Below, in pieces: positions 1,358 to 16,429 of a stretch of 40,876 nucleotides of DNA. Every line of letters starts with the position of its first letter. Positions within the stretch are counted from its first letter, which is position 1. Origin of the DNA: a virus; UHGV virus genome UHGV-0232575, one strand, 5' to 3'. The position numbers were made by a program, and so were the translations under genes. A model generated the notes under the pieces. That model was not told the DNA's origin, ran no database searches, and saw only the letters and a program-made list of their open reading frames with translations.

Positions 1358-2339
1358 ATTGATATAATAAAGTGTTTTTGTTTTCAGTGAATAACCAAAT
1401 GAACTCTTCTGGTAACTGTACATGAGATAATGTATAACCACCGTAAGGTGTTTGCTCTTGCACTACACCTACAGAATTAACTTGGAAATTGAAGTAATCA
1501 CCTACAGAAAGAACTTGGTCTTTGGTTGGTTGCCCAGTAGCTGGGTTTACTTTATCAACAACACTAACTGGAATACCGTTATCAGTCCAATTAAAGTCAA
1601 TTTTACCTAAATGTTCGTTATAGATTTGCCACATTCCGTTTACATATTCCAACCCATCAACTCTATAGTTAAAACGTTGTTTTTGAGGTGTTACACTTGG
1701 TTTAGAGGGTTTGTTAGGTGTTGCTGGGTTTGACGGCTTAGAATCACCCTGAACGCCATTTGCTAAGTCTTTAGCAAGTTGTGCTTTACTGATTCCCATT
1801 TCTGCTAAGTAACCATATGGGTCTGTGTGGTCACCCCATACATAATCTGATACCCATTTATGAGAGATAACACCTTTTTCCCAAACAGAAGAACCTTGGT
1901 CAAGTGTCATAGGAATACCAAACTTTTTACCCATGTCTCTTGTATAATCAATGTATGCTTTATAGTTCTTTTTGAACAATTCCTTATCATGTGTATGTTG
2001 CAACTCAATTTGAATAGGTGCGTAGGGGTTTGCGTTACCAGCCCCCCATGAGATGTTACCTTCTGGTGCAATCTTATAAACAATACCACCATCACCAACG
2101 ATAGCTGTTGTATGTGCGTTAAACCAGTTATTTTTCATGTACGTTGCTTCAGTTCTTCCTGTGGCACGTTCATTAGCAGTTTCATGTAAGATAATCTTAT
2201 TAGGTACTGCAACCTGTCCTGAACCTTCCCAAGGACTTAAATTGAACTCGTTATTAACTTCATATGCGTTAGCTGTTTGCATTCCAGCAAACAAACCAAT
2301 GGTTGCTAATGCACCAAATAAAATACCTTTTAATTTCAT
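1356..2339 (-). CDS. Endolysin: N-acetylmuramoyl-L-alanine amidase (Amidase_2/PGRP) with N-terminal Sec signal peptide and C-terminal cell-wall-binding domain
   Basis: N-terminal MKLKGILFGALATIGLFAGMQTANA signal-peptide-like segment with an AxA cleavage site. Amidase_2-like core (ILHETANE...HTTAIVGDGG...) and a proline-rich linker. Confidence 0.85.
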   Translation of the reverse strand: MKLKGILFGALATIGLFAGMQTANAYEVNNEFNLSPWEGSGQVAVPNKIILHETANERATGRTEATYMKNNWFNAHTTAIVGDGGIVYKIAPEGNISWGAGNANPYAPIQIELQHTHDKELFKKNYKAYIDYTRDMGKKFGIPMTLDQGSSVWEKGVISHKWVSDYVWGDHTDPYGYLAEMGISKAQLAKDLANGVQGDSKPSNPATPNKPSKPSVTPQKQRFNYRVDGLEYVNGMWQIYNEHLGKIDFNWTDNGIPVSVVDKVNPATGQPTKDQVLSVGDYFNFQVNSVGVVQEQTPYGGYTLSHVQLPEEFIWLFTENKNTLLYQ

Positions 2340-2341
2340 AA

Positions 2342-2575
2342 TTATTTGTCCTCCTTATTGTCTCTAATACCTTTTGTGGTTGGGTCTATAACTACCCCTA
2401 AAATACTTAACACAACGAATACTGCATTAACAACATCAATTAGTTGTTGACTCAAACCAGTTAGGTTTGATAAGTCTAATCCAAAAATGTTTCCCACAAC
2501 TTGAATCAGAACAATTACTGCTGGAATTAAAGCAATCCAGAACGCTTTGTTTTTGATACGTGTTTTCCAATCCAT
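2342..2575 (-). CDS. Holin (two-TM, LAB-phage holin family)
   Basis: Two hydrophobic helices with a charged C-terminus. The preferred start MDWKTRIK at 2575 has an AGGAGA RBS 8 nt upstream. The longer ORF reaching 2659 is Cys-rich and lacks an RBS. Confidence 0.75.
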   Translation of the reverse strand: MDWKTRIKNKAFWIALIPAVIVLIQVVGNIFGLDLSNLTGLSQQLIDVVNAVFVVLSILGVVIDPTTKGIRDNKEDK

Positions 2576-2589
2576 TTTTAACACTCTCC

Positions 2590-2835
2590 TTATAATATAG
2601 TTATAATAGCACCAATAACAGCAACAATGATTGCCCCTGATACTGTGCGTGTTAGCCAAGTTAAACGGTCATTTATACTAGCAATGTCTTTCTCATTTTG
2701 AATTGAACGGTGATGGGTTTCACTCAATAAATTATTGTTTGCCTTTAATTCATTTTTCAAATCTGGAATACCTTCCAAGTTTGATTCAATTCTAGCTAGT
2801 TGCACTTTTATTTCCATAAAGTCCTTATCTTCCAT
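2590..2835 (-). CDS. XhlA-like lysis-associated membrane protein
   Basis: 81 aa with an N-terminal coiled coil and a single C-terminal TM (AIIVAVIGAIITIL). It sits immediately upstream of the holin. RBS GGGAGA. Confidence 0.6.
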   Translation of the reverse strand: MEDKDFMEIKVQLARIESNLEGIPDLKNELKANNNLLSETHHRSIQNEKDIASINDRLTWLTRTVSGAIIVAVIGAIITIL

Positions 2836-2885
2836 GCCTACATCTCCCTATCTTATTATAATCACCGCCTTTCAGCTACTATTAT

Positions 2886-2894
2886 AGTATAGCA
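2886..2894 (-). promoter_or_regulatory. Extended -10 late promoter (TGCTATACT) for the lysis cassette
   Basis: The - strand reads aaaTGCTATACTATAATAGTAGC about 55 nt upstream of the xhlA-like start. Confidence 0.5.
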
Positions 2895-2972
2895 TTTAAA
2901 TAAGGGAAATAGTGTGCTTCACAGGACGATTCTAAGCGTTTTTCAGATTGAAAGTAAGGTGTTTGTACATTA

Positions 2973-3002
2973 AAATGCAAATAAAAAACACCCCTGAAAA
3001 GA
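2973..3002. terminator. Bidirectional rho-independent terminator
   Basis: aaaaACACCCCtgaaaagAGGTGTTTTT, with T-runs on both strands. Confidence 0.65.
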
Positions 3003-3013
3003 GGTGTTTTTAA

Positions 3014-3307
3014 CTATAATAAATCAGAAAGTAATGCTTCTAATTTTGCTAGTCTTTCAGCCATTTCTTCCTTAGTTGGTTCTGGTGGTTTATTGGCTTC
3101 TTCATCTAAAAACTTTTGGAAAGCATTATTTGTATTTCTAGTCAATTCTTTTCCATCATAGTAATAATTATGAAAGTCAATCAACCCACCTTGCATAGAG
3201 TTTGCCGTTGTAATATCAATGTCAACTTCTACATAGTCACCAAATGGTTCTGTTGTATAACCAGTTAGAAAACCGGTCTTATTCTCAATCCAAATTTTCA
3301 TATTCAT
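3014..3307 (-). CDS. Hypothetical tail-associated protein downstream of Tal/RBP
   Basis: ORF 3014-3346. The likely start MNMKIW at 3307 is preceded by AGGAAGG. It overlaps the end of the upstream gene. Confidence 0.55.
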   Translation of the reverse strand: MNMKIWIENKTGFLTGYTTEPFGDYVEVDIDITTANSMQGGLIDFHNYYYDGKELTRNTNNAFQKFLDEEANKPPEPTKEEMAERLAKLEALLSDLL

Positions 3308-3315
3308 CAACCTTC

Positions 3316-5376
3316 CTATACTGAAAATATACTTGTCAATACCCATTTAGCACCATTACCAGTACCATTATTGGCTCTGCCAGTTACACTCCTATTTGAT
3401 ACATATACGTATTTATATACAGTGTCATCCACACCACCACCACTAGCTCCACCACTTTGCAATCTCATACTAATACCTCTACCATTATTGAAATTGGCAT
3501 GTGCTTTAGGTACTAAATAATAATTGTATTCCCAAGGCTGTGGTTTTCCATTTGTGGCGTCGTATGGTTGCCATAAAAATAACCAACCAATTGCACACTC
3601 TTCCATTTTTAAAGTTGGTATAATGCTATCCGTATTTGTTACCCATGAATTGCCAGGGTATATCTTACGTCCTGTATTTGCAAATTGCATAATTAATTCA
3701 GCTGTTAAGAAACCACTGTGACCACTACTATCTTGTAATGATAGTCCAGCTGGTGTTAGACTTACATATTGATTAATTGAACCATCTGTGTTTAATACAC
3801 GTCCATCAAACCCTTGTGAAAATAACCTTGTTGAGCCTGTTCTATTTGTTGTTAAGTTCTTGTATTCAATTTCCATTTCACCACCAGCCACTGTTGATAC
3901 ACCTTCTAATTGTTCACCAGCTACTGTTGCTTTAAATGTATTCAAAAATTCAGAACCATTGATTGTAGAACCGTTCATTGTGATAGCGTTTAATGTTTCA
4001 ATGTTTAGCACAGCTTGGTCAATTGTTTGTTCAATCCATTCTGTTTTTAAATCGTCCCAAACCTTATAAGAAGCGATCTTAGGACTCTCTTTTACTTCAC
4101 GTGTTTCATAGTCACCTAGTCTTGCTATGGTTGGTTGCGGTACTGTTCCATCAACAACCCACCACATATCCCCTTGTTTTGGATTAACTGGCGGTTCTTC
4201 TTGTACAAATACACGTGGTATACTTCTAACTTTATTATTTATCTGGTCCGCTAGCTTTCTTAAATTATCATTAATGCCTGATTCTAAAACAACGAAATCA
4301 CTTAGTTGTGCTTCAACACTGTCTGTTGTATAATCATACTTCAATTCTTGAACACGTGATTTTAGATATAACTTTTCGTTTTCATCTACTAACTTAATAT
4401 AGTCACCAACTTGTAAATTGTAAGGTATGTTGGCAATGTCAACTTCATATGCAACCAGTGGTTTTCCATAATCTTTTAGATGTTTAACTGCATAGTCACG
4501 CAACTTGTTTTGTGCTGTTGTTTCAAACTCTAATTGCTGTTGAAAATAGTTTGATTCGTTGTGGGTTCTTGACCAGTGCTTTACATTCTCTTTGTCGTAA
4601 ATATACCCAGTTGCCTTATCTAAGTAAAAACGACCGTTAGGGTCTACCCAGTTATACCCAACTAAGTCAACAGGTTTTTCTTTACCTTCTGGAATCCCAC
4701 CAATTGGTTTTATTGCATTAACTAGTTGGTAAATATCTTCTTTAGTAGTTATTGAGTTAATATCTTTATTAACATAAAGTGTGTGTACTTCATCTGTACC
4801 ACGCTTCTTCTTAATATCAATATATCTACCTGTTAATTCATTACCTTTAAATGTAAACCTAAAATCAAGTTCTGCATTATCAAATTGGGTTGCTACTGAT
4901 TGAATACGTTCCAATGCTGTTGCTCCTGAATCCCATTCTAATGCTCTAGTTAGTCCAGATATTTCATTTATACCAACTTTGAAACCACTACTTGATGTAA
5001 ATATTTCAATATAGTATTTAATAGGAAATGCTTTTGTTTCCTTGTGTTTACCAACATGTTGGTTTAAAAGGTCTAGTGAAGCGTCTTCTAATTCCATACT
5101 GCGTGTTTGTGTCAATGGATTGTGTGTTGATTCTAAAATTGTCATCCATTCGTGTTTACCATTTAAGTCTTTATACAAAACGTAGTTACCAACTTTGAAT
5201 ACATCTTTAGCAAGTGCGCTTGTTTCTGGTGTAAATGATACATCTAGGCTCATGCGTCTACTTGCAGTTGCTAAACTTATTGTATCCTCTGTTGATGTTA
5301 CTTTGAATTGAGTACCACCACTGGTTGATACAATATCTAGTAACTTAAATGTCCTATCTGTAATGTAAAAGTCCAT
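3316..5376 (-). CDS. Tail-associated protein Tal / receptor-binding tail fiber (phage minor structural protein N-terminal domain, prophage tail endopeptidase-like)
   Basis: 686 aa; N-terminal MDFYITDRTFKLLDIV is typical of siphovirus Tal; Gly-rich C-terminal region; position directly after Dit. Confidence 0.75.
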   Translation of the reverse strand: MDFYITDRTFKLLDIVSTSGGTQFKVTSTEDTISLATASRRMSLDVSFTPETSALAKDVFKVGNYVLYKDLNGKHEWMTILESTHNPLTQTRSMELEDASLDLLNQHVGKHKETKAFPIKYYIEIFTSSSGFKVGINEISGLTRALEWDSGATALERIQSVATQFDNAELDFRFTFKGNELTGRYIDIKKKRGTDEVHTLYVNKDINSITTKEDIYQLVNAIKPIGGIPEGKEKPVDLVGYNWVDPNGRFYLDKATGYIYDKENVKHWSRTHNESNYFQQQLEFETTAQNKLRDYAVKHLKDYGKPLVAYEVDIANIPYNLQVGDYIKLVDENEKLYLKSRVQELKYDYTTDSVEAQLSDFVVLESGINDNLRKLADQINNKVRSIPRVFVQEEPPVNPKQGDMWWVVDGTVPQPTIARLGDYETREVKESPKIASYKVWDDLKTEWIEQTIDQAVLNIETLNAITMNGSTINGSEFLNTFKATVAGEQLEGVSTVAGGEMEIEYKNLTTNRTGSTRLFSQGFDGRVLNTDGSINQYVSLTPAGLSLQDSSGHSGFLTAELIMQFANTGRKIYPGNSWVTNTDSIIPTLKMEECAIGWLFLWQPYDATNGKPQPWEYNYYLVPKAHANFNNGRGISMRLQSGGASGGGVDDTVYKYVYVSNRSVTGRANNGTGNGAKWVLTSIFSV

Positions 5377-5446: not shown

Positions 5447-7534
5447 TTATAGATATGTTTGTTCTAAAATGCAATTCACTTCTGGTTGTAGCGCCCATGA
5501 TGAATAGAAAGGTAGTATTTCATGTTCTCCTACATCAAGTCTAAATGCTTCCCACTGATTACCAACAACATTCAGTTCATTGTTGATAGCACCATTGATG
5601 TATACATTACGTGAGTACGTGTCTAATTCTACTAAGTCACCATCTTTGTAATAGTTGCGTACATCTTTTATGTGCTTAACGTTTAACCAACGTAGTTTAG
5701 CATCTGTAACCATAACTTGGTTTGCTCTAAAGTTACTATACTGTTTAAACCAGAAACCAAACTTGTCTAAATTAGACTTGTCAGAAACATTGTATGTGAA
5801 AATGTAGTTGTCGCCTACCACAACGTTATTATATTTATTTATTCCTTTGATACTTGCTAAGCGCCATTTTATATATGTTTCAGTACGTTCAATGTTTATT
5901 TCCAGCTTAGTATTACCAAACTTCTTCTTGTCTAATGTGTACTCGTGTACCTTTTCACCCATATACCAACATTCCATAATGGTATGATTGGTACTGTATA
6001 ATGAATCTCTAAATAATGTATTGATTACTGGGTTTCCAGCTGTGTCACCAATCATAAATTCTAAATGTGCCATTGGTGGGTTGTCTTTATAGTTTGTAAA
6101 AATGAAACGTATGTTAGCAACAAAAGCTGATGTTCTATCATTTGTAGATGGTGCAGTTATTGGTACAACTGCCGTTGGTCCATGCCAAACATCTGTTTTT
6201 TCACCAGTAAAATCTGGTACTACTGAATCAACATCTTTTGTCATGTTTAATGTACCATCAACTAAGTTTGGTGTATCTGGGTTGTTTAGATAATTAGGAT
6301 ATATACTAATGAAACCACTGTTCTGTACCATATTGTCAGGTAGGTTTGGACCCCAAAAATCTAACCACTGCACTGTTTCTGTTCTTGTCTGTTCTGTGTA
6401 GTCAACCTCTTCTGGGTTTCCAAATTGTAAAATATCACCATTTTTGTTTACCAACCCAACCATGCCATTATCACCATTCATCTTGAATGAAAAGCGTGGG
6501 TAGGCTTTGTATGTTCCGTTGTTTACAACTTTTAATTCTTTTCTTAATTCAATTAATGATTTTTGATAAGTCATTGGTGCCGTAGTATCAAGTGCAAACA
6601 TTGGTTCACATATATCACCGCTCACATGGTCACCGTACAAACCAAAGTTCATTGATAATCCAGTTGTTTCAGGACTTTTGATAGTTATTGTTTTAAAGTA
6701 CAATGTCCAGTCTTTTACCTCATTAGGTATTTGAATAACATGTGTATATGTTTTTCTAATTGGATTGTCTGCCCATTCAATTAAAATTAGCCCTGATGTT
6801 TTATCTGGTATTACTTCATTGTCTACTACGTTGATACGCACTTTAGCTTGAAAGCCAACTGTTTGACCTACCTCTAAATCTAGGTTCATACGTCTATTGT
6901 ATGCGTCATAGAAAAACCATGCTTGGTGTGGTGTGCTGTTGTCTGTATAGTATGCTGGTATACCAGCGGTGAAGTCACAACTTAATACATTTTGACCAAA
7001 GTGCTTTTCTGGTGAAAGTTGCGCCCACGGTTTATAGTATTGGTCTTTGCGTTCAAAATTTGAATCTAATACCATATTACTGTTTTTAGTTGTTACATTA
7101 TTAAAATTTGAAGCTTCAACTTGGTGGGCAAGTGCGTCTGGAACATCAAAGGTTAATGTAAAAGGTGTGTACTTTGTGTCTGTAGCGTCATACTCTTCTG
7201 TCCCTGTGAATATTGCGTTAAAATATCTATCTGGCATTTGGTCCAATATAAGTCGTTTTGGTTCGTCTGAATTGATAATTTTAACTAATTCATCTTTAGT
7301 TTCTGATACAGTCATGCCACTGTTGTCTGATATAATGAAACCATCAATTGATATTGCGTATTCACCTAATCTAGTATTTCTGAAATGTTTACCGTCAGTA
7401 TTACCAACTGTGTAAAAATCATTATCTTTTGACAGAAAAGGTACATTTACTTTTGCTATCTGAAACAAGTGGCTTGTTTCTTTACCGTCAAATGTAAAGC
7501 TTCTCAAAAAATCATAATTTTGTGCCATTTTCAT
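5447..7534 (-). CDS. Distal tail protein Dit (long, evolved form with inserted domains)
   Basis: 695 aa ORF immediately downstream of TMP and upstream of Tal. The Dit call rests on synteny. The length implies inserted domains of the carbohydrate-binding kind. Confidence 0.65.
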   Translation of the reverse strand: MKMAQNYDFLRSFTFDGKETSHLFQIAKVNVPFLSKDNDFYTVGNTDGKHFRNTRLGEYAISIDGFIISDNSGMTVSETKDELVKIINSDEPKRLILDQMPDRYFNAIFTGTEEYDATDTKYTPFTLTFDVPDALAHQVEASNFNNVTTKNSNMVLDSNFERKDQYYKPWAQLSPEKHFGQNVLSCDFTAGIPAYYTDNSTPHQAWFFYDAYNRRMNLDLEVGQTVGFQAKVRINVVDNEVIPDKTSGLILIEWADNPIRKTYTHVIQIPNEVKDWTLYFKTITIKSPETTGLSMNFGLYGDHVSGDICEPMFALDTTAPMTYQKSLIELRKELKVVNNGTYKAYPRFSFKMNGDNGMVGLVNKNGDILQFGNPEEVDYTEQTRTETVQWLDFWGPNLPDNMVQNSGFISIYPNYLNNPDTPNLVDGTLNMTKDVDSVVPDFTGEKTDVWHGPTAVVPITAPSTNDRTSAFVANIRFIFTNYKDNPPMAHLEFMIGDTAGNPVINTLFRDSLYSTNHTIMECWYMGEKVHEYTLDKKKFGNTKLEINIERTETYIKWRLASIKGINKYNNVVVGDNYIFTYNVSDKSNLDKFGFWFKQYSNFRANQVMVTDAKLRWLNVKHIKDVRNYYKDGDLVELDTYSRNVYINGAINNELNVVGNQWEAFRLDVGEHEILPFYSSWALQPEVNCILEQTYL

Positions 7535-7607: not shown

Positions 7608-10600
7608 TTAAATGTAACCTAAATTACGTCTGTTGTTACGTTGCTGTGTATTATTTAGGTTGTTAAGTTCCTTGTTAAGCTTCTTACCGTCCAATAACAC
7701 ATCTGTATTTTTGGCTAAGATAGCTTGTAATAATTCGTTCTGTTGTTGCATTAAAGCAACCACTGTTGCCAAGTCTGTTGATGTTCCTTGCTTAGGTGTG
7801 TTGCGTTCTTCCTTCACTCCCAATGCTTGTTTAGCTTGGTTAAGCAATGCCATTGCTCTTCCTCGTTTAGCTGGTTCAGTTGGAATGATAAATTCTGGAT
7901 AGCCATTTTCAGCAAGTTTTGCAATTTGTGGACCTTTTGCAATACCACCATTATAATAACCTCTAATCCGTCCACCAGATGGACCCCAACCAGATTTACC
8001 ATAAGGTAAGTCTTGACGCCAGTTAGTATTGTTAAAGAATGCTAGTAATTGGTCATAACCTGAATAAATGTTGCCATGTCCTTTTACCTTGTATGCGTCA
8101 AACGTTTGTGGGATATATTGAAGCAGACCGCGTGCTGGGTTTCCACTTGCGGTGTTGACGTCCCATACTGCTGAACTTTGAACAATCTTTTCATTACCAC
8201 CCGATTCACGTTGAATCTGTGCTAAGATACCATTGATTTCACTTTCACTAGCATTTGCGCCTATTTCTTTGGAAGCTTTGATGACTAATGCACGCCAGTT
8301 ACCATCTACAGGACCGCTAACACGTTCTTCCTCTTCTTTCTTTTTGAATAAGGCTTTCACTTTTTCAGCAAATGCAGTTGTAGCTTTTGTTCCTAAAGCT
8401 TTTGCCATGTCTAGTGCTACGTGTGTTAGACCTCCTAAGTCCATTGCACCCATAATTGCATTTCGTGCTAAGTCTAATGGATTACCTACCCAGTCCATAA
8501 TATCGCCAATGGTTTGTTTTACCTTGTTAATACCATTACCAACAAATGACTTGGTATTGTCCCACATATTGCGAACTCCGTCCATGAAACCAGTTCCTTT
8601 TTTATAGAATGGAATGCGCCCTTTTTGTCCTAATACCATTGATGTTTCTTTGGCATTTAGCACTTGTGTTCCAGCTGGTGCATTCATCATAACGTTTCTA
8701 CCTTTTGGAATCATTGCTTGACCGTTTGGTGCGATTACCATTTCAGCACCACCACCGTCATTTACTACCATAGGTCCGCCTATGTGACCGTCAGTACCGT
8801 TTGCATATTGTGGTACGTCCCATTTAGGAATTTGAGGTGCGCCAAACTTTTCTAACACCCAGTTAGCACCACCAATGATACCATTTACTGGACCACCAAT
8901 TGCACTCAATACCTTATTGAAAATACCTTTAAATGCACCAGTAACATGACCAGCACCCCTACTGATTGCACCTCCTAAACGCTCTGGCAAACTAGTAAAC
9001 CAACGTACAATTGTGTCAATACCACCACTAAATGTGTTTTTAATTCCCTTCCAAAGAGATGAAATAGTTCCTGAAACATTACTTCTAAGGTCACGTGCAA
9101 TGCGTGTTACATTACTGAACCAACCTGAAACAGCACCATTTACATTTGATACACCACCTTTAAAGAAGTTTTTAACAGCTTCCCACATTCCAGAAATTGA
9201 ACCTTTGAATGTTGCGCCAAAACCATTTACACCTTTTAATATTTTACCAAAGAATGAAATATTAATCCAGTTCCAAATTACTTGAATAGCACCCCAAACT
9301 AATTGTTTGATACCGTCCCAGATTAATTTCCAATCACCGTTGAAAATACCTTTAAAGATTTTTGTTGCCCCTTCAATTACATTAAAGAAACCTTCAATCA
9401 AACCAACTACTGAATCAACAAAACTCATTACAATATCAATTGCAATTTTAAAAATTGGTGTTAATAATTCTAACCATTTTTTAATTGCATCCATTATTGC
9501 TTGTCCGTTTTCGTTCCACCACTTAGTTACCTTATCAAAAACAGCGCCTAACCTATCACCAAGTTCTTGAAGCTTAGGCATGATGTAAGGTATTAAGTCA
9601 TCTGCAATGTACTTAATCACAACACCCATAATGTCGCCCGCAACTTTGAAAGATGTACCAAGATATTGCGTTAACTTTTCAAGAATTGGTTGTGCAAACT
9701 CCCACATTTTTTGCAACGCTGGTTGGACCATTGGTAGAATTTTCTTGGTAAAGTTTGTGATACCGTCTGCCATTCCACCAAACATTGGGTTCAATGAGAT
9801 ACCAATTTCATTTCCTAATGCTTTTAATGCTGATTTAAAGGCGTCCATTCCAGTTGTGTTGCTCATTGCGTTGTTCATTGCGTCTTGTGCGCCTTCTACA
9901 TTATCATATGCCATTGATGTATTGTTTAATGACTTGATAACATTTAAGCTGTTATCTTCACCTAATGCGGACCAGATTGTTCCAGCTTTGTTTAATGCTT
10001 CATATTGGTTTTCCATACCTCCAAAGTCACTAATCATTGAACGGATAACGTCCGCTTGTGTTGCTCCACCTTGTTGCCATTGTCTAAACAGTTCTTGTGT
10101 TTGACCGCTGAACATACCTATGTTGTCCTCAAAACGACCATCTGTTAATGAAATAGCCATTTCTTTGATTAAGTCATTGACTTTATCTAAGTTGTATGCG
10201 CCGTTATCTAAACCACTCTGTAACATGTCAAATGTTTGTTCTGCTGTGAAACCAGCTTGACCGAAAATCTGTGAGTATTCAGCCATGTTGTCGCCTAGCT
10301 CGTCTGTTTGGTCAAGACCCAGTTGTGCGCCACGTGCCATCAAGTCCCAAGCATGGTCTGCGTCAATACCAAAGTTGGTCATCATTTTACCAATACCACG
10401 AATAGTTTCGTTAACGTCTGCACCAGTATTTTTAGAAAATGCAATTGCATTACGTGTCATTCGTTGTAACATGTCGTCGTCCATACCGCCCGCACCCATT
10501 ACATTTTGAACACGTATCATTGCTTCTGCTACTTCGTTGATGTCGTCTGAATAACCTTCTGCAACTAATTGGTTAGCTAACCTTGAAACAGCTTGGGCGC

Positions 10601-11495
10601 TCTCTGCGTCCCAATCAAAAGCACCTTTGAATTTATCAACCGCTTCAATACCCGCATTAATATTTTCAACAACTTCTGAAACAGCGTCACTAATCATATC
10701 AATTGCTTTAGTAGCTACCGCCATACCAACACCAGCAACCAAACCTTGTAGCCCTTTACTTGCTAGTCCTAAACCTTCGCTAGTTTCACCGCTTGATTTA
10801 CCTAGTTCTTGCATTCCTTTAGATACTGAATCTAGTTCACTGTCTGTATTGTTTAATTGCTTTTTAAAGCCTTGTAACTCTTGTTCAGCTTTGCTAACTT
10901 CTGTTGAATTTTTACCAAACTTTTGCGTTAATTGTTTGATTGCGTTTTCTTGACCAGCAATAGCTTGTTTAGTTAGGTCTGATTGACGTTTTAAACCAGC
11001 CTGTTTTGTCTCCAAAGCACCCATTTTGTCGCCAGCTTTATCCATTGCGTTGGCTTGTTTTTGGAAGTCTTTTGCGTTATCTTTGATTTCTTGACCTAGT
11101 TTATCTAAACCATTCTCAAACTTGATAACGTCAGCTGTAGTTTTTTGCAAATCTTTTTGCATTCCATTGTATTTGGCACTAGCATTGTTTAACTGTGTAG
11201 TTAGTGTTTTAACTTGGTTTGATTCTTCACCATATTTTGCAATAGCGTCTTGACGTTTCTTACTTAGTAATTCAACTTTCTTACCTTGTAAGTCAGTAGC
11301 TGTTGCTAAGTCTTTTTCTTTTTGTTGCAATTTCTCAATACTTTGTCCTGATTTATCAAACACTGATAAATTGGCTTTCATTGCTGATTCTTGCTGTTTA
11401 ATTGACTTGTTTAATTTGTCTAATGTATTAATGGTCTGGTCTACACCGTCAACACCAATACCAAACTTCATATTGCCAATAACCTTATCTACCAT
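7608..11495 (-). CDS. Tape measure protein with a C-terminal lytic transglycosylase (SLT) domain
   Basis: 1295 aa. N-terminal coiled coil (QKEKDLATATDLQ...) and central aromatic W/F repeats. SLT motif ...RESGGNEKIVQSS...GLLQYIPQTF... near the C-terminus. Confidence 0.9.
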   Translation of the reverse strand: MVDKVIGNMKFGIGVDGVDQTINTLDKLNKSIKQQESAMKANLSVFDKSGQSIEKLQQKEKDLATATDLQGKKVELLSKKRQDAIAKYGEESNQVKTLTTQLNNASAKYNGMQKDLQKTTADVIKFENGLDKLGQEIKDNAKDFQKQANAMDKAGDKMGALETKQAGLKRQSDLTKQAIAGQENAIKQLTQKFGKNSTEVSKAEQELQGFKKQLNNTDSELDSVSKGMQELGKSSGETSEGLGLASKGLQGLVAGVGMAVATKAIDMISDAVSEVVENINAGIEAVDKFKGAFDWDAESAQAVSRLANQLVAEGYSDDINEVAEAMIRVQNVMGAGGMDDDMLQRMTRNAIAFSKNTGADVNETIRGIGKMMTNFGIDADHAWDLMARGAQLGLDQTDELGDNMAEYSQIFGQAGFTAEQTFDMLQSGLDNGAYNLDKVNDLIKEMAISLTDGRFEDNIGMFSGQTQELFRQWQQGGATQADVIRSMISDFGGMENQYEALNKAGTIWSALGEDNSLNVIKSLNNTSMAYDNVEGAQDAMNNAMSNTTGMDAFKSALKALGNEIGISLNPMFGGMADGITNFTKKILPMVQPALQKMWEFAQPILEKLTQYLGTSFKVAGDIMGVVIKYIADDLIPYIMPKLQELGDRLGAVFDKVTKWWNENGQAIMDAIKKWLELLTPIFKIAIDIVMSFVDSVVGLIEGFFNVIEGATKIFKGIFNGDWKLIWDGIKQLVWGAIQVIWNWINISFFGKILKGVNGFGATFKGSISGMWEAVKNFFKGGVSNVNGAVSGWFSNVTRIARDLRSNVSGTISSLWKGIKNTFSGGIDTIVRWFTSLPERLGGAISRGAGHVTGAFKGIFNKVLSAIGGPVNGIIGGANWVLEKFGAPQIPKWDVPQYANGTDGHIGGPMVVNDGGGAEMVIAPNGQAMIPKGRNVMMNAPAGTQVLNAKETSMVLGQKGRIPFYKKGTGFMDGVRNMWDNTKSFVGNGINKVKQTIGDIMDWVGNPLDLARNAIMGAMDLGGLTHVALDMAKALGTKATTAFAEKVKALFKKKEEEERVSGPVDGNWRALVIKASKEIGANASESEINGILAQIQRESGGNEKIVQSSAVWDVNTASGNPARGLLQYIPQTFDAYKVKGHGNIYSGYDQLLAFFNNTNWRQDLPYGKSGWGPSGGRIRGYYNGGIAKGPQIAKLAENGYPEFIIPTEPAKRGRAMALLNQAKQALGVKEERNTPKQGTSTDLATVVALMQQQNELLQAILAKNTDVLLDGKKLNKELNNLNNTQQRNNRRNLGYI

Positions 11496-12066
11496 TATTC
11501 AATCTCTCCTTTTGCTTTTGCTAGGTCTGTTGGTGATAGGACAGTGCCAAAAAATGCTAATGGGTCTTGTTTCTCTTCTTTTTTCTCTTTAGTATTATCA
11601 CTGAATAATTCCAATAAAAGAAGGTAGTCAGCTTCGCTAACATCATTAACGGTCCAACCACCTTCCATGTATGAATTATATAATTTGTTTAGTGATTCTA
11701 AAGATTCGTCCCAGTTAACTTCAACACCGTCCTCTAGGCTTCCTTTGAATCGTCAACTCCCATAATAGTTCCTAAGATGTTTTCTAAAACGTCTACTAAG
11801 TCATCTGATTCAATTGAGTTTTCAATTGCTTCAAATGTAACTTCTGGGTGTTCAAAGATTTCAACTAATAAGACAATCATTGAATCTAATAATTCTAATT
11901 GGTCAACTTCTACACCATTAGCCATGTCTTTTTGTACGTTTTCCATATCACGGTAATACTTCATAATACTACGCATTGTCTTAACTTTGACACCTTTTTT
12001 TGTAATTTTGCGGTTTTTTCCGTCAATAATTAAGTTAATACTGAATGATTTTGTTTGTTTTGCCAT
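11495..12066 (-). CDS. Predicted gpGT fusion via programmed -1 ribosomal frameshift near 11743-11749
   Basis: The -1 frame is open from just before the gpG stop to a TAA that overlaps the TMP ATG (TAATGG). A dnaX-like layout is present: GGGAG, a 10-nt spacer, then TCA AAG slip. Confidence 0.55.
11734..12066 (-). CDS. Tail assembly chaperone gpG-like
   Basis: 110 aa acidic protein immediately upstream of TMP. RBS GGAGGAATAAAC-ATG. Confidence 0.7.
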   Translation of the reverse strand: MAKQTKSFSINLIIDGKNRKITKKGVKVKTMRSIMKYYRDMENVQKDMANGVEVDQLELLDSMIVLLVEIFEHPEVTFEAIENSIESDDLVDVLENILGTIMGVDDSKEA

Positions 12067-12151: not shown

Positions 12152-12180
12152 TAAAAAAAGAAGAGCTGTCAAGCTCTTCT
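12152..12180 (-). terminator. Rho-independent terminator after the major tail protein gene
   Basis: GAAGAGCTtgacAGCTCTTC followed by TTTTTTT on the - strand. Confidence 0.7.
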
Positions 12181-12248
12181 AAGTCAATTCAATTGTTACA
12201 CTTGTGTCAGCTGGTGTCACCTGCCCTACCACAGGTGGATTAGCTGGG
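12179..12248 (-). other. Conserved post-stop recoding-like element, copy B (after MTP): the +1 frame encodes a 21-aa extension and a hairpin CACCTGTGGTAGGGCAGGTG follows
   Basis: The + strand shows CCC AGC TAA then tCCACCTGTGGTAGGGCAGGTGACACCAGCTGACACAAGTGTAACAATTGAATTGACTTAG. It is ~88% identical to copy A at 15145-15214. Confidence 0.6.
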
Positions 12249-12812
12249 TAAACCGTTGTTTACTTTGTCAACAAACTTATCAAGTGTTAATGTATCGCTT
12301 GAAACAGCACTCATGTATGCAAAGCCACGTGAATCTGTTACAAATGAACCTTCAATTGTTTCTGTATTTGGTTCTGTACCACCAGATTCTGTTGTATTCA
12401 ATGCGATTTCTGGGTGGCTGAAACGTCCTTTAACTAAACCAAAGTACATCTCTTTACCGTCTGCACCGTCTGCAACAAATACTGCTGAAACGTAAGGCGC
12501 TTCTGTATTTTCACCAACGATTGCAATACCATCTTTATCACGTTCAATACCTAAAATTTTCTCATAAACGTTGTTTTTATACAAGTCAAATACGTTTAAT
12601 GAAGCTGTTAACTCTCCAACTCCTTTAGCTGATACCCAAATTGGAACGTTTGACGCATAAACGGTTGTTTGTTCTGCTGAAATTCCTTTAATTGACGCTT
12701 CAATAGTACCGCCACCGCTTTTATCAATTGTGTATTTATCAACACCTGAACCTGCTTTTTTAGGTACACTAATGATTGCTTTTTTGAATCCTACTACAGC
12801 TATGATAACCAC
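12240..12812 (-). CDS. Major tail protein (phi13-like family)
   Basis: 190 aa at the typical MTP position. GTG start with a nearby GAGGAG RBS; start is uncertain. Confidence 0.75.
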   Translation of the reverse strand: MVIIAVVGFKKAIISVPKKAGSGVDKYTIDKSGGGTIEASIKGISAEQTTVYASNVPIWVSAKGVGELTASLNVFDLYKNNVYEKILGIERDKDGIAIVGENTEAPYVSAVFVADGADGKEMYFGLVKGRFSHPEIALNTTESGGTEPNTETIEGSFVTDSRGFAYMSAVSSDTLTLDKFVDKVNNGLPS

Positions 12813-12875: not shown

Positions 12876-13430
12876 TTATGCGAATGTTATTGAGAACCCT
12901 TTGTGTGTTTTTCTTTTACCTCGTAAGACTTTGTTAACATGGCCACTATCACCATTATGTTCTACACAAAACTCTCTAACTGTTCTATAATAGAATGACT
13001 CTCCATTTTTATTTGTACATATAATCCCATTAAATTTAAAACCATATATGGTGTCCATCTTCTTTAATTGTGATTCTTCTGAAAAAACCTGTTGTTTTCT
13101 CTTGTTTGATATATTATTTTTTGTAGTATCAGTATGATGTCTATTGTGCATTACACCATTACCACCAGCTGTTATATTATATCCATCAACTGTAGTGTTG
13201 TATTTTTCTATTAACTTCATTTCTAGTTCGTTAGCTTCATCTTTTGTTAATCCTTCTCTTATTATAAAGTGGTTGAATCCATCCCATCCGTATTTTTGAA
13301 TTGCATTGTAGAACTTGTGTGAACTACGATAGGCAGAACCGTTACCCCACCTAGTGTTTACTTTCTGCATAGTTTGACCAAAGTATTTTTTATTATTTTC
13401 TTTGTTTATATGCAAATATACTGTATACAT
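12876..13430 (-). CDS. GIY-YIG homing endonuclease (free-standing, inserted in the tail module)
   Basis: N-terminal YTVYLHINKENNKKYFGQT GIY-YIG motif. C-terminal NUMOD3/IENR-like HVNKVLRGKRKTHKGF. Confidence 0.8.
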   Translation of the reverse strand: MYTVYLHINKENNKKYFGQTMQKVNTRWGNGSAYRSSHKFYNAIQKYGWDGFNHFIIREGLTKDEANELEMKLIEKYNTTVDGYNITAGGNGVMHNRHHTDTTKNNISNKRKQQVFSEESQLKKMDTIYGFKFNGIICTNKNGESFYYRTVREFCVEHNGDSGHVNKVLRGKRKTHKGFSITFA

Positions 13431-14879: not shown

Positions 14880-15083
14880 TTATTTTACAGCTGCTGCAGT
14901 TGTAGTGAATTGTGGTACATCTACTTTGCTAGATTCTGGCTTACCATCTTCAATTGCTGTTACTTGAAAATCACCTTTGCTATATAGTGTTTCTGCTGTT
15001 AAACCTGTGATTGTTACTGGTGATGGTTTTTCAGTCACAATCTTTTCACCTGTTTTCTTGTATACGTTAAATACTTTAGCCAT
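14880..15083 (-). CDS. Small Ig-like (Big_2-like) domain protein; possible capsid decoration
   Basis: 67 aa with VTITGLTAETLYSKGDFQVTA, a Big_2-like strand pattern. It has its own RBS AAAGGAGAG and lies between the MCP and connector genes. Confidence 0.5.
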   Translation of the reverse strand: MAKVFNVYKKTGEKIVTEKPSPVTITGLTAETLYSKGDFQVTAIEDGKPESSKVDVPQFTTTAAAVK

Positions 15084-15102: not shown

Positions 15103-15139
15103 TATTTTAAAAAGAGGTAAGGCGAATGCCCCACCTCTT
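15103..15139 (-). terminator. Rho-independent terminator after the MCP gene
   Basis: AAGAGGTggggcattcgccttACCTCTTTTT on the - strand. Confidence 0.6.
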
Positions 15140-15144
15140 AGTGT

Positions 15145-15214
15145 TTAACTCAATTCAATTGATACACTTTTATCTGCTGGTGTCACCTGTCCTACCACAG
15201 GTGGTGTACTAGGG
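15145..15214 (-). other. Conserved post-stop recoding-like element, copy A (after MCP): the +1 frame encodes a 21-aa extension and a hairpin CACCTGTGGTAGGACAGGTG follows
   Basis: The + strand shows CCC TAG then tacaCCACCTGTGGTAGGACAGGTGACACCAGCAGATAAAAGTGTATCAATTGAATTGAGTTAA. The +1 frame from CCC gives P-STPPVVGQVTPADKSVSIELS-stop. Confidence 0.6.
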
Positions 15215-16429
15215 CAATTGTGGTGTTAATGTAATGAATTTACCAGCGTTTTTGTCTACTACTTTAGCATCAAAACGCATGAAGATTGCTAAGTATTGAC
15301 CATAAATTTCGTGGTCAATCCAACGAGCAGTAGTTTCAGCACGATTGAAGAATGTTGCAAATGCTACTGGGTCGCCTAAGAATGCCACTTTATCACCTTT
15401 GTTACCTAACATTTCATCTTTCAACACTGTTACTGGAACACCAAACAATGATTTACCAGACTGTGCTGTAATGTCAGTTTGTAATAAGTAACGGCCTTCA
15501 CCGTCTTTCATGATGTCAACTGCGTTGTAGAATGATTGAGTAACAATTAATTCTAAACCGTAAGCTGGGTCGAAACCAGTGTTGATTTGAGTTTTGATAT
15601 CATCTAATGATTTAGCTGTTACTGCTGTAGCTGTTTTTAACAAGTTAGCTAAAACAAAGTTAGTTGTGTTTAAGCCTTGACGTTGTACTGAATCAGCAAT
15701 AATTCCAGCTAAGTCGTCCGCGGAATCATCTAATGATTCTTGTGATACAACAATTTGACCACGGTAAGTTGATACGTTGTAAGGTACTTCTTCAAATTCA
15801 GGTTTTGCCAATGCTGGGTTTTTTGCCAACTCTTCAACTGTCACCATTTTTGCAGTAGTTGATTTCAAGATTGGGTATTTACCGCCAGAAGTTTTTACTT
15901 TGATACTATTCACTTTATTACGTAAGTCAACAACTGTTTCTGGTAATTTACGTGCTTTTGTGATAATATCTTCTGGAATAATTGCTTCTGCGTCTGTTGA
16001 TTTAACTTGTCCGTCACCAACCGCACGTGTTTCGTTAAATGATTTTACGCTAGTTGATTTTGAAGTTACGTAGTCTAAAAACGCACGTTGTTCTGTTACT
16101 GGCTCTGCTAAGTCTTTACCATTGATTTTTACTTTCTCCATGTCAATATCTTCTCCTTTTGCGTTCTCAATTGAACGTTCTTCTTTTTTTGGTTCTTCCT
16201 TTGGTTTGTCTTTGACTTCGTCTTTAGGTTCGTCCTTTGGTTCTTCTTTAGGCTCTTCCTTTTTGACTTCGTCTTTAGGTGCTTCTGTTTTATCTTCTGC
16301 ACGTTCTTCGTTTTCAGCTGGTGTTTTATCTTTCAAAGCTTCTAACTGTTCAATAACTTTTTTAGCTTCGTCAAGTTTACCTTCTGCCAACAAAGATTTT
16401 GCTTGCGCTTCTAACTCTGCCTTGTTCAT
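15209..16429 (-). CDS. Major capsid protein (HK97-like) with an N-terminal scaffold-like delta domain
   Basis: 406 aa. N-terminal coiled coil plus KE/P-rich repeats (EEPKEEPKDEPKDEVKDKPKEEPKKEE), then the capsid core. No separate scaffold gene is present. RBS AAGGAG. Confidence 0.85.
   Translation of the reverse strand: MNKAELEAQAKSLLAEGKLDEAKKVIEQLEALKDKTPAENEERAEDKTEAPKDEVKKEEPKEEPKDEPKDEVKDKPKEEPKKEERSIENAKGEDIDMEKVKINGKDLAEPVTEQRAFLDYVTSKSTSVKSFNETRAVGDGQVKSTDAEAIIPEDIITKARKLPETVVDLRNKVNSIKVKTSGGKYPILKSTTAKMVTVEELAKNPALAKPEFEEVPYNVSTYRGQIVVSQESLDDSADDLAGIIADSVQRQGLNTTNFVLANLLKTATAVTAKSLDDIKTQINTGFDPAYGLELIVTQSFYNAVDIMKDGEGRYLLQTDITAQSGKSLFGVPVTVLKDEMLGNKGDKVAFLGDPVAFATFFNRAETTARWIDHEIYGQYLAIFMRFDAKVVDKNAGKFITLTPQLP

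Follow-up and report, generated by a model that had tools for sequence, protein, structure and literature searches.

The DNA analysed here, called the window below, is the 40,876-nucleotide virus genome UHGV-0232575, an essentially complete genome of an Enterococcus siphophage of the genus Efquatrovirus. Its genes for the major capsid protein (MCP) and the major tail, or tail-tube, protein (MTP) are each followed by a similar short element, which an earlier note on this DNA had taken, after the MCP gene, for a candidate programmed +1 frameshift cassette. It is very likely, judging from the comparison of related sequences, that a +1 frameshift at a CCC codon adds nearly the same 21-residue tail, referred to here as the tag, to a fraction of both MCP and tail-tube subunits. 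Beyond what the earlier note had claimed, the tag probably corresponds to the two opening strands of an FN3 domain, the remainder of which is encoded by the next gene. We favour, with moderate confidence, a function in which the tag completes in trans the fold of this 67-residue protein and so tethers it to capsid and tail tube; recoding and split-domain function, taken together as one proposal, are held about as firmly.

All features of the window described here lie on the minus strand, and coordinates are those of the window. The MCP gene (15209–16429, 406 residues; Pfam Phage_capsid, E 7e-25; PHROG major head protein, E 8e-58) ends CAA TTG CCC TAG, its 0-frame stop TAG occupying 15209–15211 in the list of open reading frames (ORFs). 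As the earlier note had read it, the +1 frame after CCC runs AGT ACA CCA CCT GTG GTA GGA CAG GTG ACA CCA GCA GAT AAA AGT GTA TCA ATT GAA TTG AGT TAA: 21 codons specifying STPPVVGQVTPADKSVSIELS, then the stop TAA at 15145–15147 (tag with stop, 15145–15210). The tail-tube gene (12240–12812, 190 residues; Pfam Phage_TTP_1, PHROG_88) ends GGT TTA CCC AGC TAA, and its +1 frame likewise has 21 codons, specifying ANPPVVGQVTPADTSVTIELT, then the stop TAG at 12179–12181 (12179–12244). The identity of about 88% previously given for the two copies holds over the core of the element (53 of 60 nucleotides), and amounts to 58 of 70 over the spans 15145–15214 and 12179–12248. Seven core positions differ: three are third positions of the +1 frame (GGA/GGG, GCA/GCT and GAT/GAC), one gives K/T and two give S/T, and the last falls in the stop codon; the description of these differences as mostly third-position or conservative was thus accurate. 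A 23-nucleotide core occurs exactly twice in the window, against no occurrences expected by chance (100 shuffles).

The proposed shift site of the MCP gene is CCC TAG (15209–15214), a 'shifty stop' of the same motif type as the CCCUAA of phage SPP1, at which peptidyl-tRNA-Pro is proposed to re-pair from CCC to CCU. That of the tail-tube gene is CCC AGC TAA (12240–12248, with CCC at 12246–12248). The placing of CCC beside a stop codon by the earlier note is therefore correct for the MCP gene but not for the tail gene: the A-site codon after CCC is UAG in the former and AGC in the latter, where the stop comes one codon later. In both, the nucleotide after CCC (T in the capsid gene, A in the tail gene) gives an overlapping Pro codon, CCU or CCA, in the +1 frame. 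No slippery heptamer of the form X XXY YYZ was found at either window site. The predicted junction peptides of the frameshifted products are FITLTPQLPSTPPVVGQVTPADK for the capsid protein and VNNGLPANPPVVGQVTPADTSVTIELT for the tail-tube protein. Stop-codon readthrough was rejected as an explanation, the tag being in a different frame from the structural gene.

Coding conservation was assessed on 32 distinct versions of the 63-nucleotide extension from related Efquatrovirus genomes. The +1 frame was open for exactly 21 codons in all 32, with no stops, compared with 89 and 43 stops in the other two frames. The pN/pS ratio (Nei-Gojobori) was 0.36 in the +1 frame, as against 3.1 and 2.9 in the others. 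Changes among the copies included switches that preserve the residue, between AGT and TCA or TCG for Ser and among TTG, TTA and CTG for Leu. The element was present in about 100 phage records, all from Enterococcus and nearly always two per genome, and related phages retain it after the MCP stop. The earlier suggestion that the +1 frame is a selected coding sequence is upheld by these results. They also bear on a reading without recoding, in which the 60-nucleotide element would be an RNA or DNA signal following highly expressed structural genes (a processing or RNA-stabilising site, or part of a terminator or attenuator) and its open +1 frame would be a coincidence. Each copy does lie just upstream of a terminator-like hairpin with a T-tract, directly 3′ of the MCP tag at 15109–15137 (stem 15137–15119, then ACCTCTTTTT) and directly 3′ of the tail tag at 12159–12180 (9 bp); the nucleotides of a stem within the element are invariant; and long forms of the proteins have gone unreported in the literature. 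A purely nucleic-acid element is nevertheless argued against, because the +1 frame is open and purifying selection is seen in that frame only. The Ser codon switches keep the amino acid, the two terminator hairpins differ in sequence while the peptide is kept, and other lineages encode homologous peptides, in frame or in the −1 frame, with nucleotide sequences unrelated to this one. We therefore regard an element without recoding as improbable.

To delimit the position of the shift, the shift interval was taken as the sequence from the last upstream +1-frame stop to the 0-frame stop. The shortest intervals among relatives were ACT ACA CCC TAG, ACT GCA CCC TAG and ACT AAA CCC TAG, that is, ACT-NNN-CCC-TAG; in more distant lineages the interval read ACA CCC AGC ... 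TAA. The element common to all +1 shift intervals is CCC, and CCC TAG is kept at MCP and tail-tube gene ends in nearly all relatives. Only 13 of the 355 Pro codons in 62 crude ORFs of the window are CCC, which makes it rare (1.1 per 1000), and of these ORFs the MCP and MTP genes alone have it as last or second-last sense codon. No phage tRNA genes were found in the window genome. A Pro-tRNA in the P site beside a stop codon is a classic +1-prone, termination-poor context. Because the frame is conserved as coding, the interval shrinks to CCC, CCC is rare, and there are precedents in SPP1 and in Listeria phage PSA, a +1 shift at CCC is much the best reading of these sites. The programmed shift that the earlier note proposed there is supported by the comparative evidence and by these precedents, and the frameshift cases in Listeria and Lactobacillus phages that it mentioned are a sound precedent.

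The tag of the MCP gene is followed by a 67-residue ORF with its own ribosome-binding site (RBS) at 14880–15083. By hidden Markov model (HMM) and PHROG_341 matches it encodes a truncated FN3-like domain (strands C to G), and it is the proposed 'catcher' of both tags. A word-indexed homolog search with a fusion of tag and ORF returned only standalone proteins of about 66 residues, 59 conserved homologs in number. To the eye, tag and ORF resemble two halves of one FN3 domain. The ORF also matches PHROGs labelled 'major tail protein'. A 7-kDa homolog, gp11 of phage vB_EfaS-271, was detected by mass spectrometry with 94% coverage (PMC7503890). When the fused 88-residue sequence was used in an exhaustive phmmer search, natural proteins aligned across the junction (P0065, P0074, P0148, P0162, P0182 and P0122); residues 3–85 of the fusion, for example, aligned to residues 157–243 of P0065. 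In alignments A2 and A3 the fusion aligned end to end with contiguous domains at 27–37% identity. The gene break falls in the B–C loop, where the contiguous domains have 3–5 extra residues. P0065 itself has a truncated copy first and then two complete copies, each after a tag-like segment PPEVESVVPTDTTATITM.

Other matches of these searches are of less certain standing. Matches to RCC1 repeats in the phmmer search were discarded as repeat or low-complexity noise. P0063 (167 residues) has a C-terminal 47-residue stretch 89% identical to the 67-residue ORF and an unrelated N-terminal part of about 120 residues, and is probably a chimera of assembly or gene calling. Three proteins of 85–92 residues, P0073 (L046, 147–404), P0116 and P0080, join a truncated FN3 domain through a linker to a C-terminus that resembles a tag (...PTATADGASIELA, ...ATATTDGASVTAS); self-complementation or head-to-tail polymerisation is conceivable.

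An HMM of 92 positions was built from nine contiguous domains only, which avoids circularity (alignment A3 includes window sequences). The 67-residue ORF matched positions 30–90 with E 3.6e-20, and truncated proteins of five other lineages matched from their own N-termini, at positions of about 29–90. Tags matched the complementary part, positions 2–22, in register and ending at the stop. For the window these matches covered positions 3–22 (tail tag, E 0.083) and 3–21 (MCP tag, E 0.54); tags of the loci L041 and L042 gave E values of 0.013–0.32. The contiguous relatives themselves gave sub-threshold Pfam fn3 matches only (E 0.004–0.09), and the profile of A3, window sequences included, found fibronectin in the PDB at E 0.004–0.009. 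AlphaFold2 modelled the fusion with pLDDT 61 when no alignment was supplied, and with pLDDT 94.8 and pTM 0.82 when it was given alignment A4, the tag columns of which come from contiguous domains only. In the model the tag forms strands at residues 5–12 and 15–21. A Foldseek comparison with the PDB gave, as its 50 best matches, nothing but FN3 domains and proteins that contain them (probability 1.0, TM up to 0.7). According to these models, tag and 67-residue ORF together probably make up a seven-strand FN3 beta-sandwich in which the tag supplies strands A and B. The 67-residue protein alone would expose its core, because A and B belong to a three-stranded FN3 sheet, of which a single strand would be left.

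To see how general the arrangement is, 80 IMG/VR loci were picked solely for encoding the truncated domain; many are near-duplicates, leaving 57 distinct tag contexts. In 76 of the 80, an ORF of capsid or tail-tube size carried at its 3′ end a tag that ended at a stop. Of the other four, two were short contigs, one narrowly exceeded the threshold, and the last was phage 3A, whose tags were identified by manual inspection. Of the tags, 102 were in the −1 frame, 6 in +1 and 1 in frame (L088), those in −1 following G GGA AAG, GCG GGG GAG, A-rich runs, or CA AAG adjoining the stop. Tags were 51% identical within a genome, compared with 30–43% for the same gene between genomes; a shared partner would predict this, and so would gene conversion. 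At many loci the gene for the truncated domain has an RBS that overlaps the stop of the tag. The truncated domain was found in 469 phage records, mostly of Staphylococcus (Triavirus, and the Kayvirus myophages K, 812 and ISP) and Enterococcus; none of the 469 was from a Listeria phage.

Inspection of gene ends in distant loci bore out the expectation that a truncated-domain gene goes with a tag on a structural gene, and individual loci illustrate the different ways in which the tag is reached. In the +1 frame, L038 has tags after CCC AGY in both the MCP and tail-tube genes (ASAVSNPPLVGTITTDEKSVRIELS; VVAVSNPPRVGSITTDETSATIELS), and L048 has one after ACA CCC TAA in the MCP gene (NNLPVIGQVTPGDTFATITVS). 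L047, with an unrelated capsid family and an SPP1-like tail, has a +1 tag after ACT CCC TAA in the tail-tube gene (KIAPAELKVTPTTSGAVIELV), the stop of which overlaps the RBS of a 373-residue catcher. Staphylococcus phage 3A has TTA CCC AGC TAA, as in the tail gene of the window, at the ends of both its MCP and tail-tube genes, with +1 tags AKPQKVNVTAKAKSAVISAE and ANPQNVEVAVNSKSATVSAE, and then a gene for a truncated FN3 plus Big_2 protein. At L044 a +1 shift at ACA CCC TGA in the tail-tube gene would add the whole, unsplit domain. In the −1 frame, both genes of L042 have GCG GGG AAG TAA and the tags EVTSPVVGKLSPTADGAVINLS and EVTSPVVGKVSPTIDGATLELI, and both genes of Brochothrix phage BtpYZU02 have G GGA AAG before the stop and the tags GKVDSPVVAKVNSTTTGANVELS and GKVTIPLVGAVNATSTGANVNLT; the paper on the structure of Brochothrix phage NF5 contains nothing relevant to frameshifting or a split FN3.

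Staphylococcus phage 812 (L131, KJ206563.2) has three adjacent genes of this kind at 2319–3728, with no frameshifting. The product of the first, gp151, annotated 'head cement protein', ends in an in-frame tag (...APKNVQVTPKEDGADVSAE); gp152 consists of a truncated FN3 domain, Big_2 and a C-terminal tag; and gp153 is a truncated FN3 domain alone. Their sequences suggest that gp151, gp152 and gp153 could form a chain of tag and truncated-FN3 links. There is no solved structure of gp152 or gp153.

Two loci have further features of interest. L045 (1–1561) has a single tag (..TTDTTATIELS, then the stop) and a terminator, followed by two tandem truncated-FN3 genes (236 and 247 residues, both with Big_2), so that two catchers may compete for one tag. 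In L047 the capsid gene ends ACA AAA AAA GCA TAG (2200–2522), and the −1 frame continues SIAPSGVTLNKSALT, a Big_2 domain annotated by gene callers as an 80-residue ORF of its own; a −1 frameshift probably extends the capsid protein by this entire domain, beside the +1 tag on the tail tube.

The survey also bears on whether the tag might be translated independently of the structural gene, either by internal initiation at GTG, giving a free peptide of 13–17 residues, or by a bypass that fuses capsid protein, tag and 67-residue ORF. Two in-frame GTG codons do lie inside the tag, the second 3 nucleotides after AGGA, and a hairpin with a stop codon resembles a take-off context. The GTG codons, however, lack proper RBS spacing, and the residues upstream of them (S/A-T/N-P-P) are conserved. 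Against a bypass, the ATG at 15083 is in another frame with stops between, take-off and landing codons that match are absent, and no domain whatever follows the copy in the tail gene. Both schemes are further opposed by the finding that in every lineage the stop upstream of the tag is adjoined by CCC or a slippery heptamer, and by the in-frame fusions to a structural protein in L088 and gp151 of phage 812. Taken as a pair they are very improbable.

A more serious alternative accepts the +1 shift and lets the 21-residue tail act alone, as a beta-hairpin on neighbouring subunits or as a selected FN3 remnant, the 67-residue protein being unrelated and folding by itself. The weak matches of the tags to the domain HMM, the distance of 3 kb between the tail-gene tag and the 67-residue gene, and the short extension (24 residues, with no known partner) of the PSA protein Tsh-L are in keeping with it. 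It does not account for the alignment of tag plus truncated protein along the full length of contiguous domains, interrupted in a single loop, nor for truncated proteins that lack exactly HMM positions 1–28, two of the three strands of one FN3 sheet. Tag and truncated domain, moreover, co-occur almost completely across lineages with different recoding, the tag stop overlaps the truncated-domain RBS in many loci, and phage 812 has its chain of in-frame tags and truncated domains. We consider a tail acting alone unlikely, if still worth keeping in view.

A hairpin within the element was also examined as a possible stimulator of the shift. The earlier note had described a 6-bp stem starting 6 nucleotides after CCC. 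The hairpin is indeed present, but it begins 8 nucleotides past CCC (5 after the stop), and in RNAfold its stem lengthens to 7 bp and encloses a loop of 6 nucleotides (CACCUGU-GGUAGG-ACAGGUG, 15184–15203). Its counterpart in the tail gene (CACCUGU-GGUAGG-GCAGGUG, 12218–12237; RNAfold −17.5 kcal/mol) has an outer stem, CAGCU/AGCUG (12242–12246/12208–12212), that overlaps the shift site. Among the 32 copies, synonymous third positions were variable at 0 of 4 sites in the stem, 3 of 3 in the loop and 9 of 14 elsewhere (hypergeometric, about p = 0.02). L038 has a hairpin 7 nucleotides past CCC in both genes (GCGGUG-N7-CACCGC; 5861–5890 and 8518–8547) with a sequence wholly unlike that of the window; it covers another part of the peptide than the window hairpin does, yet a spacing of 7–8 nucleotides from CCC is kept, and its MCP copy has an energy of −20.9 kcal/mol (z −3.9). 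Stronger structures go with shift sites that have no adjacent stop, which recalls the 'shifty stop versus pseudoknot' pair reportedly proposed for PSA. A role of the hairpin as a frameshift stimulator is weakly supported.

Several results weigh against recoding, or against the split domain. The CCC AGC site of the tail gene has no adjacent stop, and its efficiency is uncertain. The energies of the window hairpins are ordinary compared with shuffled sequences (z −0.6 for capsid, −1.1 for tail), and by RNAfold no comparable hairpin is found at the SPP1 and PSA tsh sites. In the metagenomic relative L007 (IMGVR_UViG_3300045988_002390, about 8590–8610) the tail-tube gene ends TTG GCC TAG with the tag intact downstream, and L011 is the same; either these are sequencing errors, or shifting was recently lost, or CCC is not strictly needed. 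Long MCP or tail-tube forms have not been reported for Efquatrovirus-type phages, the published mass spectra of vB_EfaS-271 having been searched against annotated ORFs only. As to the domain, Pfam has no family, fn3 included, at E≤10 for the 67-residue ORF or either fusion, a PDB sequence search with the ORF and the fusions gave no match, and BLASTP of the fusion against the FN3 extension of SPP1 was not significant. Taken one by one, the tags match the non-circular HMM weakly, and those of three lineages do not fall below E = 1. The AlphaFold model is of a single fused chain and shows compatibility, not binding in trans. Finally, in the PDB entries 9rox and 9roz of the phage 812/K capsid the cement-protein chain comprises residues 2–175, and neither the tag region nor a bound partner is represented.

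The +1 shift and completion of the FN3 domain in trans can be combined in the following scheme, which builds on sequence conservation, homology, near-complete co-occurrence and a predicted fold. Some ribosomes would pause with peptidyl-tRNA-Pro on the rare CCC, with UAG (capsid) or AGC (tail) in the A site. The tRNA would slip +1 onto CCU or CCA, perhaps helped by the hairpin 8 nucleotides downstream, and 21 more codons would be translated, giving minority long forms of both proteins. The tag would provide strands A and B and the 67-residue protein the other five, completing the FN3 sandwich in trans, so that one decoration module would be held, by a non-covalent link, on those capsid and tail-tube subunits that carry the frameshifted tail, and the frameshift rate would set its copy number. 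That terminators follow the tags and that the catcher gene has an RBS of its own is consistent with a catcher made independently in the window phage. A likely origin is a whole FN3 domain added by a +1 shift, as in SPP1 and L044, and later split in the B–C loop; such a split means that one gene can serve two structural proteins. Since catchers of relatives carry Big_2 or Ig domains, the likely role of the decoration would be weak adhesion to cell-surface polymers, such binding having been proposed for other phage Ig-like domains.

On a wider scale, we are slightly inclined to think that hundreds of Firmicutes phages use a non-covalent tag and catcher derived from a split FN3 domain, in which an A/B tag of about 20 residues on capsid, tail-tube or cement proteins docks a truncated FN3. 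Such a system may well span Enterococcus Efquatrovirus, Staphylococcus Triavirus and Kayvirus, Brochothrix and Latilactobacillus phages, the tag being attached by +1 or −1 shifting or by plain fusion. It is also reasonable, on a narrow balance, to suppose that one decoration gene serves head and tail in this way, with the dose set by recoding efficiency, with tag-ended catchers that can be chained, and often with Big_2 adhesin domains on the catcher.

If correct, these proposals have several consequences. The recoding is unannotated in the Efquatrovirus records inspected, and searches of open-access papers and preprints found no account of a frameshift in Efquatrovirus or of a split FN3, a result that falls short of proving novelty. 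Phages of the genus are widely isolated for use in E. faecalis therapy, and their virion protein sets would gain two extra species. Split-domain docking would be a previously undescribed form of decoration attachment, in which a recoded peptide completes the fold of a separate protein. It would explain conserved short frameshift extensions without an obvious fold, as well as small phage ORFs that start in mid-domain. It would tie recoding efficiency directly to decoration stoichiometry, with one gene shared by head and tail, and would provide a natural pair of peptide tag and partner for phage display or engineering.

The structural region of the window is 97.7% identical to those of phages vB_EfaS_159 and Q69. 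On the minus strand its order is portal, S78 protease, MCP, the 67-residue ORF, head–tail connector genes, GIY-YIG endonuclease, tail-tube protein, tail chaperone and tape measure. The endonuclease, a 184-residue GIY-YIG plus NUMOD-like homing endonuclease, lies between the tail-terminator and tail-tube genes (12876–13430). Close relatives have another endonuclease, or none, at this spot, and phage TwoStep has a 'homing endonuclease' there; this variation is probably why coverage against relatives breaks at 88%. The tail assembly chaperone gene (Phage_TAC_19, 11734–12066) ends GAT TCA AAG GAA GCC TAG, and the −1 frame is open from its end to 11495, just upstream of the tape-measure gene (11495–12066 in all). 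This is probably the usual −1 frameshift of the G/GT type, at a non-canonical A AAG site.

The window can be compared with four known arrangements. Completion of a sandwich by strands from another polypeptide, which gives a stable non-covalent link, would be shared with donor-strand complementation in chaperone–usher pili and with engineered split Ig-like tag/catcher pairs, and the series gp151, gp152 and gp153 of phage 812 resembles a succession of such links. Pili, however, lack the C-terminal G strand and receive an N-terminal donor, whereas the window domain lacks the N-terminal strands A and B and would receive a C-terminal one; there is no homology and no chaperone, and complementation in the window is a prediction.

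Ig-like domains are said, in work of Fraser and colleagues from 2006, to be added to phage structural proteins by 3′ programmed frameshifts, and Lactobacillus phage A2 belongs to the same class. The window would resemble this class in having a beta-sandwich decoration on a subset of capsid and tail subunits with the dose set by recoding efficiency, and L044 makes an unsplit homolog of the window domain in just this way. In that class, though, the domain is covalently part of the long form, whereas the window domain is apparently split over two polypeptides, its shifted frame holding 21 codons, a stop and a terminator rather than a complete beta-sandwich.

In Listeria phage PSA both the tsh gene (ACA CCC TGA, a 24-residue extension, then a terminator) and the cps gene (ACA CCC TCC) are annotated as undergoing ribosomal slippage. 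Zimmer and colleagues reportedly observed the long forms by mass spectrometry in 2003. As with Cps-L and Tsh-L, capsid and tail genes of the window would both be recoded +1 at CCC near the 3′ end, one at a shifty stop (tsh CCC TGA; window CCC TAG) and the other with a sense codon after CCC (cps CCC TCC; window CCC AGC), and the tsh extension too is short with a terminator behind it. Unlike the two tags of the window, the PSA extensions have no relationship to one another or to the tag (one begins with the acidic ETPLELPLENES..., the cps extension being 47 residues), no truncated FN3 gene follows them, and recoding in the window is predicted from sequence.

The closest parallel to the shift site is in SPP1, where ribosomes pause on the rare CCC of CCCUAA and shift to CCU, yielding gp17.1 and gp17.1* in a ratio of about 3:1. 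The SPP1 extension is an 87-residue FN3 domain (Pfam fn3, E 2e-13). SPP1 adds this whole domain in cis and to the tail tube only, with no hairpin downstream, whereas the window would add strands A and B (21 residues) to both capsid and tail tube and has the rest of the domain in a separate gene; direct sequence similarity between the two is not significant. What they appear to share is a rare CCC with a stop codon, a +1 slip onto CCU, a long form made in the minority that would be displayed on the virion, and an FN3-type C-terminal extension of the tail-tube protein.

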